Positions 9,001 through 45,000 of a stretch of 64,000 nucleotides of DNA are shown one piece after another. Every line of letters starts with the position of its first letter. Position 1 is the stretch's first letter. Origin of the DNA: Escherichia coli (GTDB taxonomy: Bacteria > Pseudomonadota > Gammaproteobacteria > Enterobacterales > Enterobacteriaceae); assembly GCF_013122565.1 (NCBI RefSeq), contig NZ_CP053258.1. One strand, written 5' to 3'. A program made the position numbers.

Positions 9001-12000
9001 TGCAAATTCCGCAATCGGTGCCATACCGCGAGATTCAAGGAAGTTCAGTAAGCGGCGCGGAGAAACATTCAAAATGCGCTCTGGCGGAAAATCTACCGCG
9101 TCGAGGATTTTAAGACACTCTTCAAATTCCCCCATGGTAAACGCGGTGTGAGAATCCGAGCCTAATGCCACCCAACCTCCAGCATCACGTACCGCTGCGG
9201 CTACCGCACGACAGTTGTCTTCACTGCCCTTACGTGAGTGTAAAAATGAGGAATTATTGATTTCCAGCGCCACCTGATGTTTCGCGGCTGCTTCAGCAAC
9301 GGCTTTAACATCTATTTCATATTTCGGATTTCCGGGATGGCTTATTATATGCACATTGCCGCTGGCGATAGTGGCGATCATCGCTTGTGTATTGGTCGCT
9401 TTATCATGTGGCGCAAAAACCGGCTCATGAAAACCGGCAATAATCAGATCCAGCGAGTCAAACATTTTACCGCTGCAATCAATTTCACCATCAACATTTT
9501 TAATGTTAGCTTCGATACCGCGCAGGATCCCTACCCCATCAACCACTCGCGGCCAGATACGCATGTTAATGAAGTGCCAGTGATGCGGCGCATCTTCCAT
9601 ATCCGGGCCATGATCGGTGATCGCAAAAAGTTTAATGCCCTTTTGTTTGGCCTGGGCAATGTAATCACTCAATGTGCTATATGCATGTGTGCTGGCAACG
9701 GTATGCATATGAAGGTCGACGGGATACATAACTCTCTCCTGTATTCAATTCCCGCCAAGGATAGCAGGAATCCTGATGCTTTATTAGTAGCCGCGTGCGC
9801 GGTCGACTTGCCCGCAGACCCTCTCCCCTTTTTCGAGCTGGGCAATGGTGCGAGAAATGTACTCCACAGCTTCAGCGGGACGGGTAATCGCGGCGACATG
9901 TGGTGTTATCGTCACGCGTGGATGTTGCCAGAGCGGACTTTCAGGCGGTAAGGGTTCACGATTAAAAACATCCAGCATTGCGCCTTTAACTTTCCCGCTA
10001 TCCAGCGCTGCGAGCAGGTCATCTTCCACAACATGAACACCACGCGCCAGGTTGAGGAGATACGCGCCATCCGGTAATTTTTCGAGTAATTGTTGATTAA
10101 TAATGCCGACGGTTTCAGGGGTATTCGGTAACAAATTAATCAATACCCGACATTGGCTCAGAAATGCAGACAGTTCTTCCCGTCCGGCAAAGCTTTGCAC
10201 GCCAGGCCACGATTTACGGGTTCGACTCCAGCAACGCAGCGGAAAGCGCCAGGTTTGCAGACTCTGAGCAACTTTACTGCCCAGTACGCCTGCGCCCAAA
10301 ATGCCGATGGTAAAATCTGCCCGATGATATTCAGGCAGCGGTTGCCAATGCGAACTATTTTGCTGGATGCGATAATCGTCAAAACGTCGAAACCAATGCA
10401 GCACCTGACTGACAGCATATTCCTGCATTTGCTCGCCCATACCGGTATCTTCCAGGCGAAAAAGTGGAACGGAAGGCTTCAGCATTTCAGGATGTGCCTG
10501 TAGCTTGCTCAAAATAGAATCAACACCGGCCCCGAGTGCGAACACCGCTTTAAGATCGCGCCCTGCCAGCATTTCAACAGGAGGATGCCAGACTAAAGCA
10601 TAATCAGCAGAGTCATTATCTCCGCTTTTCCATGCTCTGACTCTTGCCTGAGGAATAGCTTTGCGCAGTGCCTCAATCCACCATTGGGTATCGAACGTTG
10701 GGTGATAAAAGATGATATCCATACTGACTCCCGAAAAGCGTTGCGCGAAATTTATTCGCACTTATCGTTATCATCTACAAAGACCACCAGCATAACAAAT
10801 CCGTGGTCGGTGGCAAAAAAAGCAGATTTCGCTTATTAAAACTGCATATTGATTGAAGTTTGAATAAACGCGCGATTTTTTAAAAAAGTTTGTTGACCTC
10901 AGGTCATGATTTCCCTAAATTAGCGCCCGTTCCAGCAAGACAGGAACGACAATTTGGTGAGGTGTCCGAGTGGCTGAAGGAGCACGCCTGGAAAGTGTGT
11001 ATACGGCAACGTATCGGGGGTTCGAATCCCCCCCTCACCGCCAGATTACAAGCGCATGTTATTGTTTAACATGCGCTTTTTTATTTATCCTTCCAGACAG
11101 TATGCCACCGGGTATGCCATCTGAAACCGGTTTATATGCCCCACGATCATATCTTATCGGACAATTTCCGATCTTTGAGCATACTGGCAAAGCTATACTG
11201 CCAGCATGTCAGGATAGTGTTTTGCGATAATATCATTCAGTCTGTCAACCAGTTCTGGCTTCCTGAACGTGATGTGCGCAGAGCCCTTCTTAAAGTATTT
11301 AATAATGAACATCTCATCTTCATAGCATTCTTTTCCCTGAAGAGACCGGATGTGATCGTCCAGATGAATAGTTATGTTTTCCCTGTTGTCGGGGATCGGT
11401 TTGCCGCTGAACAGATGCAGCATTCTTTCCAGGTCGGCAAGTCTATCTGCCTGTTGCCCGGTGATAAGATGCAATCCCCACCGGTCCCACCTCACCAGAT
11501 TGTTGACGATAATTTTATTGCCAAATTTACAGGGGCAATTGGTTTTGTAATTCCAGCTCAACCCTCTGAAGAGGTTGATCACTCCTCGCTCAAACACTTC
11601 ATCCTTATTCTGGTGTAGCTGCTCAAACGTACTCAGAATATTCTCTTCACTGATTTCCGGAAAATTATCGTACTCCAGTGATCGGTACCATGTATCACGG
11701 GCCTGTGCATCCATTAAGGAAAGCATCCCGGAGCATTGCATCAGGTCACGCCAGATTTCGCGATCGAGATTGCGGGTGATAGCTTTCATTGCTGTATCAG
11801 GTTTATCCATGAGCCAGCAGCCGCAGCGAAAATCCTGTTTCATGGCCCAGTCCAGTGCGGTTTTACCGCCAATACTTTCTGTCATTGCTGATATTTCAGT
11901 CAGTTGCCGGATAAGTGTGTCGATTTGCAGCAGTGTAGTCTTTCGCACAGCCAGAATGTGGCTGACTGAGGTGGAGCAGATAATGTCCGTATGTCCGTTG

Positions 12001-42000: not shown

Positions 42001-45000
42001 TCATCACCTGCAGCAAGTTGCTCTCGCATTATCCGGGCAGTACGTGCAGCTTCGGCAATACTGACCTCAGGGTAAGTTCCCAATCCAGCATTACGCCTTT
42101 TTTGTGTCACCGGACTTACATAACGAAAAACCCATTTACCCCGCCCCTTTACTGAAGAAGGATGAAGGGTCAGCCCTGTAATTCCCCCATGAGGCAATGG
42201 TTTGTCATCAGGTTTGATATGCCTTGCTTTTGTATCAGTCAATACTGCCATACGCTAATTCCTGTTTCTCTAGTATGCCATCCAGTATGCCCTTATTCTC
42301 ACACTTCACTAAGCATACATTAGATAATATCGGACAGAAAAAATTTGTAATGTATTGTTTATAATTAAATTATACAACGCCTCTGGATTAAGTCAGATTT
42401 ATTTCAGGCGGTCCCCCTCACCGCCATATTTAAATAAATATCCTCCGGCATAGCCGGAGGTTTTTCAAATGCGCCTATAAGGCTCTCTTACCAGCCGCGC
42501 CCTAACAGGCGCACACGATCTGACATTTGCATCCAACTTCGTTACTTACGGCCCGTAAACGGGCTGCCCGGATAGGGAATCGATAACTGCTCTCCCATTT
42601 CATCCTCTTCAAGCTGGTGCTTTATGTAATCCTGTATCTTCGCCGTGTTCTTACCCACCGTATCGACGTAATACCCTCTGCACCAGAACTCCCTGTTCCT
42701 GTATTTGAATTTCAAATCCCCAAACTGCTCATAAAGCATCAGACTGCTTTTCCCTTTCAGATATCCCATAAAGCCGGATACGCTCATTTTGGGCGGGATC
42801 TCCACAAGCATATGGATATGATCTGCACAGCATTCAGCTTCAAGAATCCGTACGCTTTTCCACTCACACAGCTTTCTCAAAATACTGCCTATTGCTCTAC
42901 GCTTCTCTCTGTAGAACACTTGTCTTCGGTATTTTGGCGCAAAAACTATGTGATATTTACAGTTCCATCGGGTGTGCGCTAAGCTCTTTTCGTTCCCCAT
43001 TGGGACCCCCTTTTGATTTCTTGTTTGACACTTGCAGTTGCCAGACCGCAAGGTGTTTTAACAAATCAAAAGGGGTTTTAATAACTGGCTCAAAGCTGAA
43101 AGCTTTCCGGAACCCCCAGTCTAGCTGGGGGTTTTCTGTGCACAAGAAGAGCCCGTACGAAAGTACGGGCTTTTTTTTCGTATATTGCACACACCGGGTG
43201 CCCCCGCCCACGTCTGTTAGGGCGAGGGGAAATCGTACACATCAACTGTCTGATTGCTCAGTCAACAATCAAAATGCGCAAGAGAGTACAGAACATATAT
43301 GCGCTATCTGGTCACTTCCTGTAACTTCCTCACTTATTAAAATGCCCCCAACGGAAATACATGTCACATGCCATCATAAAATCGTTATGCCAGAGGAACC
43401 GACAATGGAAAAAATAGTAAATTAAGCACGGTACATAGCAGAGTAAAAAATAGGCTTCAAACCAAATCCGCCATTCCACAAGCGTTGCCAATACCGACAC
43501 CAGCGTAATCCACATCACTTCAATAACCAGCAATATGAATAACCGAAGCCAAAGCGGCTTGGCAAAAAAGGTCGACAACGCATTTTCACTGGAGAAAAAC
43601 AGATCGATTTCCTGCAAAAAAAGCCTGCCCAGAAAAGCGTACCGCTTGGAGAAGCGCAGAAAAAACAGATTAATCGCCAACACTACGCCACAAAGAATGA
43701 GCAATGCAATTATCGATTTAAACGTTAACCACTGCCCCTCTGTCACAAAAGAGTTACTGTTACGCAACGGGCTGATAGTAAGCAGGTTAACAACCGTTGA
43801 GATACACACCGAAAGCAGCACATAGCGAGTCAGACTTTTATATTTTACTTTTTTCGCTACTGAAATAGCGACCTGCTTGACATAACTGGTGCGGATCATC
43901 CGAAACAACAGAAAGATGACCAACGGCCCAAGTAACGAAATCAGGAACAGCGCATATAACGAGGGTAGAAGCTGGTATAGCCCCCAACTCATTGCACTCA
44001 ACATGATTAACGACAGAAATCCTGCCACCAGAGGTTGTGTAAGAAATAATTCTATTTTGTGGTTCTGCTTTTTCTTAAACCACGAAAAATCGATATTCTT
44101 CGTGACGCATTTATAAGCCCAGTACGCCTTGAGATCAAAAATAAAATTATACAGCACCAGGACCAGAATCCCACTAACTACACCAATATCCTCTGATGGA
44201 AAAGTAAACCCTGCATTTTTCCAATAAAAGCCTATCAGAATAAGTCCAATAGCATAAATGTATATCAGATTTCGTTTATCCTGAAAGCGAATAAAAGTTA
44301 AATAATCAGGAATCATTTGAATACCTTCGCATCACTAAATGCTTTACGACAATGCATAACTCGTTGCTGATCCACGCCAGCAAAATCATTTAACATATTC
44401 CCCAAATAGGGCTTATTACTTATTTCAAGGAAAGCTACCGGGGTTGGCATATTCAGAAATGTATCGAGAGATTCAGTCCATTTCACCGTATGAGTTAAGT
44501 GTAATGAGAGATTTTCTTTGATAATTGACGGAGCGACCTCGCTTTTTGCTGTTACGTTCATCAGAACCTGATGCTCTGGCGAAGCGATATCCAGTCCGGC
44601 AAGATAATCGCGCATTGCCTGAACGCCGTCTTCCATCAAACGCGTGTGCCAGGCACCGCTCACACCGAGTTTAACCGGTTCGTACCCAGCGGCCATCAGC
44701 AGCGTGGCAAATTCATTCAACGCAGTCTGCGTTCCCCCAATAACCTGCTGGCGCGGCGTGTTATCACAGCTAATATCCAGCGCAATGCCTGATTCCGTAA
44801 TCATCGTCTGCAGTTGTTCGCGGTTGATGCCTTTAACCGCCAGCATTGCGCCTTTATTTCTCTGGCTTTCGTCATGCATCAGGCTGGCTCTGAAGTGAAT
44901 CATGCCAAATAGCGTCTCAAGAGAAATAGCTCCAGCGGCGTAGAGCGCACTGTATTCACCAACGCTGTGTCCGCAGGAGCCCACAACCGTTAAATTCTCA

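Follow-up and report, generated by a model that had tools for sequence, protein, structure and literature searches.

A 31.4-kb fimbrial-operon island at serX in Escherichia coli, probably of the SRL-PAI/OI-43/OI-48 family, with a tRNA-distal integrase pseudogene

The window analyzed here, a 64-kb stretch of Escherichia coli contig NZ_CP053258.1 (assembly GCF_013122565.1), carries a genomic island at the 3′ end of a serine tRNA gene. The sole tRNA found by ARAGORN in the window is tRNA-Ser(GGA) (10956–11043, + strand), which is identified as serX because csgDEFG, ycdZYX, and ghrA lie upstream of it. The features that define the two ends of the island, with its left and right attachment sites (attL and attR), are as follows.

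10956..11043, + strand: serX, tRNA-Ser(GGA), intact, its 3′ end forming part of attL (ARAGORN; Rfam tRNA; same as K-12 serX up to the CCA end)
11030..11043, + strand: attL core, the 14-bp CCCCCTCACCGCCA, which is the final 14 nt of serX (same 14-mer as the published OI-43/48 and SRL island repeat, PMC3064760)
11050..11088, + strand (hairpin 11050–11078): island-borne hairpin terminator that now ends serX and replaces the native one (terminator scan)
11098..11119, + strand: integrase-distal arm repeats, two GTATGCC(A) 12 nt apart, by analogy likely arm-type integrase binding sites
41048..42251, − strand: P4-family tyrosine integrase pseudogene (comparison with the 404-aa intact JNE23-001 allele)
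42272..42292, + strand: integrase-proximal arm repeats, two AGTATGCC 12 nt apart, kept in serW and serX relatives
42407..42426, + strand: attR, island-derived GGCGGT plus the core CCCCCTCACCGCCA (core 42413–42426); native serX-downstream DNA adjoins it in JNE23-001 and PapRG-06-5
42435..43143, − strand (tnpA): IS200 insertion sequence (IS), 709 bp, 8 nt past the attR core in the native serX terminator region and outside the island (IS200C tnpA annotation; Rfam STnc490 at 43010–43133)
43144–43180: remnant of the native serX terminator (matches K-12 locus L003, in which 6978–8147 corresponds to 43144–44316)
43330–44316, − strand: ycdU, a chromosomal backbone gene (same K-12 match)

The 14-mer CCCCCTCACCGCCA occurs exactly twice in the window, at 11030–11043 and 42413–42426, both on the + strand. 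No third copy was found in the window even with up to two mismatches, and an exact match arose in none of 100 dinucleotide-preserving shuffles of the window. The distal copy lies 161 nt from the start of the integrase gene. A preliminary description of this stretch, made from the sequence alone, had read the repeat as an imperfect one of about 15 nt; its core is instead a perfect 14-mer, the one already published as the repeat of OI-43/48 and of the SRL island. Judged from the sequences at the two ends, the difference between five C residues at the distal site and seven in the tRNA-end context marks the point where the 14-bp identity stops and the island-derived arm starts, and probably does not reflect decay.

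That the distal repeat is the island boundary, as had been proposed, was confirmed by comparison with relatives. At 98–99.6% identity, the whole island is present in only 3 of 5426 complete E. coli genomes (PapRG-06-5, A30, and JNE23-001). In JNE23-001, attR (GGCGGTCCCCCTCACCGCCA) is followed directly by TATTTAAAGAAGAGCTCGTACGAAAGTACGGGCTTTTTTTT, the same sequence that comes after serX at the unoccupied site of a K-12-like genome, and then by an RtT-like repeat and ycdU; the distal junction of PapRG-06-5 is the same. In these two genomes, the ones whose distal junctions were read, the island stops at the same base with ycdU next. PapRG-04-4 carries a different island of the family (OI-48 type, ~94% nucleotide identity over the integrase region) within an identical IS200/ycdU flank, and a boundary at attR is supported because that island differs while the flank stays constant, as expected. 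Between the island and its relatives, homology ends 8–11 nt beyond the distal 14-mer.

At serX, a lone copy of the tRNA end is no proof of an island boundary, since RtT-like repeats natively carry extra copies. The empty K-12-like locus holds five copies of AATCCCCCCCTCACCGCCA, namely the tRNA and four 181-bp RtT-like tandem repeats, each of which carries the last 19 nt of the tRNA and ends in AATCCCCCCCTCACCGCCA plus a terminator. The repeats number four in the K-12-like DNA (L003, 6244–7030), one in JNE23-001, and zero in the window, where Rfam detected no RtT element; no long internal direct or inverted repeats were found in 10900–43400. The copy at 42413–42426 might then be one more native RtT-like tRNA end and no attachment site at all, with the true boundary elsewhere, and the five copies at the empty locus do make a tRNA-end copy on its own weak evidence here. 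We consider this scarcely credible. The native copies all read AAT plus seven C, whereas the window copy reads GGCGGT plus five C, a form that was looked for in the empty K-12-like serX site and was absent; it occurs with the same upstream arm at all four attR sites compared (serX, serW, and EDL933 islands), and the loss of homology to island relatives within 8–11 nt of the copy likewise argues against a native origin. Of the native counterpart of 42407–42426 that the preliminary description had allowed for at an unoccupied serX, only the tRNA-end part (AAT plus seven C) was found; the boundary at attR stands because the exact 20-mer of GGCGGT plus core is island-specific. The native RtT-like repeats are also potential secondary attachment sites and can mislead the calling of attachment sites at this locus.

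On the tRNA side, homology with genomes that have other DNA after serX is lost at window position 11047, 4 nt beyond the CCA end. The terminator at 11050–11088 is not present in the empty K-12 site, where the hairpin differs; it shows one mismatch in JNE23-001 and is identical in strain 100181. The island had been described as starting right after the serX terminator, but the hairpin at 11050–11078 lies inside the island rather than ahead of it. The ghrA-serX-DUF4942 junction recurs in 1154 of the 5426 genomes, EDL933 among them, and Nissle 1917, UTI89, and other B2 strains match the window at 100% over the first 111 nt past the core.

The integrase gene at the opposite end is inactivated, in agreement with the preliminary description. 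Relative to the JNE23-001 allele (99% identity), residues 1–353 lie in one frame and residues 353–404 in another, owing to an 11-bp deletion between 41195 and 41196 that shifts the frame at about residue 353 and is bordered by AAATCCC direct repeats. The gene is a pseudogene because the catalytic tyrosine region (EAAYHR) falls downstream of the frame change and out of frame. The same 11-bp deletion is found in the Gambian baboon strain PapRG-06-5, whose integrase gene also has an IS3 insertion. The intact 404-aa JNE23-001 protein matches Pfam Arm-DNA-bind_3, Phage_int_M, and Phage_integrase, and it shares 31.6% identity with phage P4 Int over 94% of its length and 95% protein identity with the EDL933 OI-43/48 integrase. 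Integrase sequences of 90–99% nucleotide identity are found in 3283 of the 5426 genomes.

On these sequence comparisons, window positions 11044–42426 (31.4 kb) can be assigned, with a probability of about 0.9, to a single island of the SRL-PAI/OI-43/OI-48 family that has a CP4-like backbone and a serX/serW-targeting P4-family integrase. Its 14-bp direct repeat lies at the serX 3′ end, and CCCCCTCACCGCCA is the reverse complement of the published TGGCGGTGAGGGGG; its integrase, by way of the intact JNE23-001 allele, shows 95% protein identity to that of EDL933, the link to SRL coming from the literature only (PMC3064760). The integrase stands beside the partial tRNA copy on the ycdU/clpA side with the intact tRNA opposite in the window, JNE23-001, MSI001, and EDL933 alike. 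The backbone set of CP4-like elements is also present: integrase, AlpA, YfjI, YfjJ, GTPase, DUF932, antirestriction, RadC, DUF987, and CbeA/CbtA.

The two EDL933 islands OI-43 and OI-48 are flanked by perfect 14-bp repeats, TGGCGGTGAGGGGG, made up of the terminal 14 bp of serW and serX (Bielaszewska et al. 2011, PMC3064760). These repeats are identical to those of the Shigella SRL island, and OI-43 and OI-48 excise precisely at about 1e-3 to 1e-4 per cell (PMC3064760). With these O157:H7 tellurite-resistance and adherence islands (SpLE1-type), the present island shares the target genes serX/serW, the perfect repeat, the attR arm, the ghrA-serX-DUF4942 left junction, a right-end module of YfjI, an AlpA-like helix-turn-helix protein, an unknown protein of roughly 600 aa, and the integrase, and the placement of that integrase toward ycdU or clpA, at the end opposite the intact tRNA (PMC3064760 for OI-43/48). 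The present island differs in being 31 kb rather than 87.5 kb, in lacking ter, ure, and iha in the mapped region, where the cargo is a chaperone-usher fimbrial operon plus regulators, and in having an extra 1.5-kb noncoding stretch before a frameshifted integrase gene. The SRL island inserts at serX, with serW as the alternative, and identical 14-bp repeats flank it (PMC3064760, PMC7545054). Its integrase has 99% nucleotide identity to that of OI-43/48, and its excision is precise and integrase-dependent (PMC3064760, PMC7545054). The cargo reported for SRL comprises antibiotic resistance, fec, and aspartate-metabolism genes (PMC7545054), none of which occurs in the region mapped here. The serX insertion site is shared with PAI-serX of B2 extraintestinal E. 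coli (CFT073, UTI89, and GEI I of Nissle 1917), as are the 111 serX-proximal nucleotides at 100% identity (core, terminator, and arm repeats). Unlike the present island, those B2 elements measure 62–113 kb and carry S/F1C fimbriae, salmochelin, and Ag43 according to the literature. Since the target site, repeats, and excision of this family have already been described, the island is a further member of little importance; what is added is the exact bounds of a rare fimbrial-operon island.

The domain architecture of the intact JNE23-001 integrase is that of P4 and of the K-12 elements CP4-57, CP4-44, and CP4-6, and the backbone genes named above are those of CP4 elements. The resemblance to P4 extends to the attachment site. 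GTATGCC pairs lie at 11100/11112 and 42273/42285, a further copy at 11179 is inverted, and both island arms contain TATCGGACA. The two arms share 13 8-mers where 1.0 is expected, a number reached in 0 of 2000 shuffles. If the ends are joined as a circle, the core is about 56 nt away from one GTATGCC pair and about 121 nt away from the other, which in turn lies 21 nt from the start codon of the integrase. P4 attP, as annotated, likewise has a core taken from a tRNA 3′ end with tandem 12-bp repeats (GGGGGCATA-type) in either arm, and its repeat motif is related, with GGCATA shared with TGGCATAC of the island. The core itself differs: in P4 it runs in tRNA sense toward the integrase gene, whereas here it is antisense, and the integrase gene lies 31 kb from serX, rather than next to the tRNA as in P4 and in the ssrA-adjacent relatives. 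No P4 replication or capsid-hijacking genes were seen in the island. Comparison with P4 suggests an attachment site of P4-like build with an inverted core, which would give the distal integrase. Around CCCCCTC, GGCGGT and ACCGCC make a perfect 6-bp dyad; by the same analogy, GGCGGT/ACCGCC may be a pair of core-type binding sites and CCCCCTC a 7-bp overlap region.

The preliminary description had pointed to the integrase at the tRNA-distal end of this island. The same position is seen at serX in JNE23-001, PapRG-06-5, and PapRG-04-4, at the serW flank (clpA side) in MSI001, and in EDL933, and the layout is the norm for the SRL and OI-43/48 family. An asymmetric core would set the orientation of recombination with the tRNA gene, and an island with an inverted core would enter the other way round relative to P4; the toxin–antitoxin end would then adjoin serX and the integrase would lie opposite it, because the core is antisense relative to the integrase gene. 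The integrase-distal layout thereby gains a sequence-level explanation. Secondary rearrangement, by inversion or by recombination between serW and serX islands, could also have moved an integrase that in classic CP4-like elements and P4 sits beside the tRNA, and recombination between serW and serX islands does occur, as one EDL933 record joins a ghrA-serX island to an integrase next to clpA. As the cause of the layout, we give such rearrangement almost no weight, for OI-43/48 excise precisely between the two repeats with this very arrangement (PMC3064760), the arrangement recurs at serX and at the serW flank, and the core repeats the tRNA end in direct orientation, which integration demands and inversion of an island would not bring about. 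Inversion between serW and serX islands in particular was rejected, the layout being alike at both sites in every relative examined. The EDL933 record in question is NZ_CP124740.1 (856000–900000; 5.14-Mb assembly), in which the island starting at ghrA-serX ends with the integrase beside clpA, the serW flank; this implies that the duplicate OI-43 and OI-48 recombined there, with the intervening DNA lost or rearranged.

To judge from its ends, the island entered by site-specific recombination within CCCCCTCACCGCCA. An intact serX is restored at attL, now ended by the island-borne terminator, and attR (GGCGGT plus core) stands by the integrase gene and adjoins the original serX terminator region and ycdU. 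Later, an 11-bp slippage deletion between the AAATCCC repeats put the catalytic tyrosine out of frame, IS fragments piled up around the fimbrial-operon cargo, and IS200 landed 8 nt outside attR, where it splits the native serX terminator between TATTTAAA and GAAGAGC. PapRG-04-4 and 100181 share this IS200 insertion, whereas PapRG-06-5 and JNE23-001 lack it. In 100181, the locus equals the window minus 15896–42432, a 26.5-kb deletion that ends exactly at IS200; most of the island, including integrase and attR, is removed, and serX-DUF4942...DUF932-IS200-ycdU is left. The closest relatives of the island (PapRG-06-5) and of its flank (100181 and PapRG-04-4) all come from Gambian baboons or humans, and the window pairs the island as found in PapRG-06-5 with the IS200-bearing flank as found in 100181 and PapRG-04-4. 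The Gambian strains record successive decay at the locus: integrase frameshift, IS3 insertion, IS200 insertion, and IS200-adjacent deletion.

Several points weigh against the family assignment and the mode of integration set out above. The junction formed by joining the island ends is GGCGGTCCCCCTCACCGCCAGATTACAAGC; a synthetic attP query made of right arm, core, and left arm gave half-length matches only and no full-length match in the 5426 E. coli genomes, and the 30-mer attP junction had no match in metagenome contigs. Because neither a circle nor an attP junction was observed, we infer integration by this exact element rather than having seen it. The sequence examined was the window, and a helper integrase may be encoded elsewhere in the source genome. 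The likeness to SRL draws on published descriptions of that island, and the proposed binding-site roles of the arm repeats and of GGCGGT/ACCGCC come by analogy with P4, the whole arm being conserved in close relatives.

Judged from its sequence, the island would be unable to excise with its own integrase, and the earlier view that it is probably fixed is plausible. The window nevertheless has intact attL and attR sites, intact arm repeats, and an intact AlpA-like gene. Possibly, though we doubt it, the island is not fixed after all, its integrase being dead yet its ends mobilized in trans by the close integrase of a co-resident island of the serW/serX family. Besides the intact sites and AlpA-like gene, the presence of integrases at 90–99% nucleotide identity in 3283 of 5426 genomes speaks for such help, and the occurrence of different family islands in the identical IS200/ycdU flank (the window and PapRG-04-4) is compatible with island turnover at the site. 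That shared flank is equally explicable by homologous recombination, however, and the failure to find attP junctions in the genomes or metagenome contigs, together with ongoing decay in the lineage (IS3 in the PapRG-06-5 integrase gene, the 26.5-kb deletion in 100181), counts against mobilization.

The genes between the attachment sites were called by mapping the RefSeq annotation of 92–100% identical copies onto the window, supplemented by direct matches to hidden Markov models (HMMs); the annotation came from strain 100181 (about 99% identical over 12080–13364) and JNE23-001. NCBIfam gave no matches for the DUF-type backbone proteins, for which RefSeq annotation of near-identical copies and PHROGs were used instead. 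The genes and fragments mapped in the island are listed below.

11193..12035, − strand: DUF4942 gene, nearest the tRNA (RefSeq annotation, copies 99.8% identical)
12080–12535, − strand: DUF5983 (RefSeq annotation transfer)
12532–12906, − strand: CbtA toxin (RefSeq annotation transfer)
12996–13364, − strand: CbeA/YeeU antitoxin (RefSeq annotation transfer)
13444–13666, − strand: DUF987 (annotation transfer)
13729–14205, − strand: RadC/JAB (NCBIfam RadC and annotation transfer)
14221–14700, − strand: antirestriction protein (PHROGs anti-restriction and annotation transfer)
15039–15857, − strand: DUF932 (annotation transfer)
18767..19642, − strand: YeeP/YfjP-like GTPase (NCBIfam small-GTPase domain; RefSeq "GTPase family protein")
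20649–21521, − strand: ToxR/CadC-like winged-helix regulator, with its 162-aa partner at 20168–20656; cargo (NCBIfam, annotation)
22179–22769 and 30241–30605: IS66 fragments bracketing the fimbrial cargo (annotation transfer)
23993..29190, + strand: chaperone-usher fimbrial operon with major subunit, chaperone, usher, and 382-aa tip subunit; cargo (NCBIfam)
29578..30399, + strand: YdeO-like AraC-family regulator, its C-terminus replaced at the IS66 junction (NCBIfam NF007407, 442 bits, profile positions 1–240 of 253)
30753..35750: decayed stretch with zinc-ribbon pseudogenes and ISL3, IS3, and IS256 pseudogenes (annotation transfer from JNE23-001; NCBIfam ISL3)
31917–32510, − strand: YagK/YfjJ (annotation transfer from JNE23-001)
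35841..37367, − strand: YfjI/DUF3987, helicase-like island backbone protein (RefSeq annotation; PHROGs DNA helicase)
37392..37616, − strand: AlpA-family helix-turn-helix protein, likely the excision directionality factor (Pfam Phage_AlpA, E = 1.1e-15)
37717..39561, + strand: 614-aa all-helical protein resembling tetratricopeptide repeat (TPR) proteins, divergent from alpA (AlphaFold predicted local distance difference test, pLDDT, 82)

All backbone genes between the att copies are on the − strand apart from that of the 614-aa protein (+). Annotation transfer and HMM matches uphold the gene order reported earlier for the tRNA-proximal end (DUF4942, CbtA/CbeA, RadC, antirestriction, DUF932, GTPase): from the tRNA, the genes run DUF4942, DUF5983, CbtA, CbeA/YeeU, DUF987, RadC/JAB, antirestriction, DUF932, two hypotheticals, a helix-turn-helix regulator, and the GTPase. 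The cargo, a low-GC block in the GC profile, follows, and after it come YagK/YfjJ, YfjI/DUF3987, the AlpA-family protein, the 614-aa protein (+), and the integrase (−). The gene for the YdeO-like regulator is annotated as a pseudogene in JNE23-001. PADLOC, run on ten island proteins, returned nothing apart from a weak LeoBC-type match on the GTPase.

The 614-aa protein encoded next to alpA had no match in Pfam, NCBIfam, PADLOC, PHROGs, or PDB sequences. Its family, found in Enterobacterales, has 119 clusters, all lacking a Pfam domain, and in the CP4-like islands of this order the gene is always divergent from an AlpA-YfjI-YfjJ module beside a P4-type integrase. The position is unchanged in distant islands, among them some next to ssrA in which the integrase is tRNA-proximal, and the OI-43/48 counterpart of the protein is only 29% identical. 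Fold searches with the predicted model gave weak TPR-type matches only, among them the RRNPP-type receptors NprR, Rap, AimR, and PlcR. Receptors of this type act in lysis–lysogeny or transfer decisions in Gram-positive mobile elements. Given its conserved position and weak fold matches, the protein could conceivably be an uncharacterized regulator or sensor of the excision or maintenance of CP4-like islands, a role that we consider unlikely.

Beyond attR, the preliminary description had passed over both the native terminator remnant (43144–43180) and ycdU (43330–44316), which lie past IS200. The remainder of the window, 44313–64000, is a region of OI-47 type with genes for an acyl carrier protein (ACP) S-malonyltransferase, a LolA-like lipoprotein, an ABC transporter, ketosynthases, an aminomethyltransferase-family protein, ACP, FabZ, a short-chain dehydrogenase/reductase (SDR), and AcpS, which make up a fatty-acid/polyketide-like lipid locus. 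Two further features belong to this region.

58139–59758: ShlB/FhaC transporter of a two-partner secretion system
59847–63659: 1270-aa two-partner secretion exoprotein

The region beyond ycdU is 100% identical in strain 100181 over the stretch compared, where it continues with a further fimbrial operon, a ToxR-like regulator, and an EAL-domain protein to dgcT and pgaA; O157:H7 strains match it at 98.4%. In EDL933, OI-47 (z1528–z1556) is an O island separate from OI-48 (z1559–z1664) (PMC8565820). The full OI-47-type form stands beside ycdU in 389 of the 5426 genomes, and about 2288, K-12 included, have ycdU with a truncated ACP S-malonyltransferase gene. This gene abuts IS3 in both annotations read (the K-12-like PG20180171 and JNE23-001), which suggests that the truncated form arose by IS-associated deletion.

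The preliminary description had taken IS200, the lipid locus, and the two-partner secretion genes for a second module accreted at serX, in a composite or tandem array with the 31-kb island. In favor of such an array, the downstream region is variable, is missing from K-12 except for a remnant, occurs in full form in only 389 of 5426 genomes, and comes directly after attR in the window. We hold this to be very improbable. The native serX terminator remnant and ycdU stand between attR and the lipid locus, whereas an array would need three or more att copies, or a further recombinase, and no backbone between its members; the attP query of the 5426 genomes gave no sign of tandem copies; no att copy (at ≤2 mismatches) or recombinase bounding the OI-47-type region was found within the window, and the region reaches dgcT without an integrase or a third att copy, even at two mismatches. 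It corresponds to OI-47, distinct from OI-48 in EDL933; the truncated malonyltransferase gene beside IS3 in K-12 and JNE23-001 points to IS-associated deletion rather than to insertion at serX; and IS200, which PapRG-06-5 lacks, is an independent insertion. One island bounded by the two 14-mers, with separate chromosomal DNA beyond it, remains the preferred reading.

A few smaller observations concern the island interior. Positions 12080–13666 (DUF5983, CbtA, CbeA, and DUF987) are 86–92% identical to JNE23-001 while the rest of the island is about 99% identical, and JNE23-001 has an extra DUF957 gene in its toxin–antitoxin module; the pattern points to mosaic exchange of the toxin–antitoxin end between islands. 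Between the gene for the 614-aa protein and the integrase, 39562–41047 is a 1.5-kb stretch of low GC content (about 37%) with no open reading frame longer than 111 aa. The equivalent gap in OI-48-type islands is only about 190 nt, and the stretch may be a decayed gene or a noncoding element. Finally, the ToxR-like regulator and its 162-aa partner (20168–21521) are distant paralogues of a regulator/163-aa pair at the dgcT end of the OI-47-type region (locus L008, 7092–8400), with 27% identity between the regulators (E = 8e-16) and 24% between the partners (E = 0.014); OI-47 is the location given in the literature for the ToxR-family regulator GrvA.

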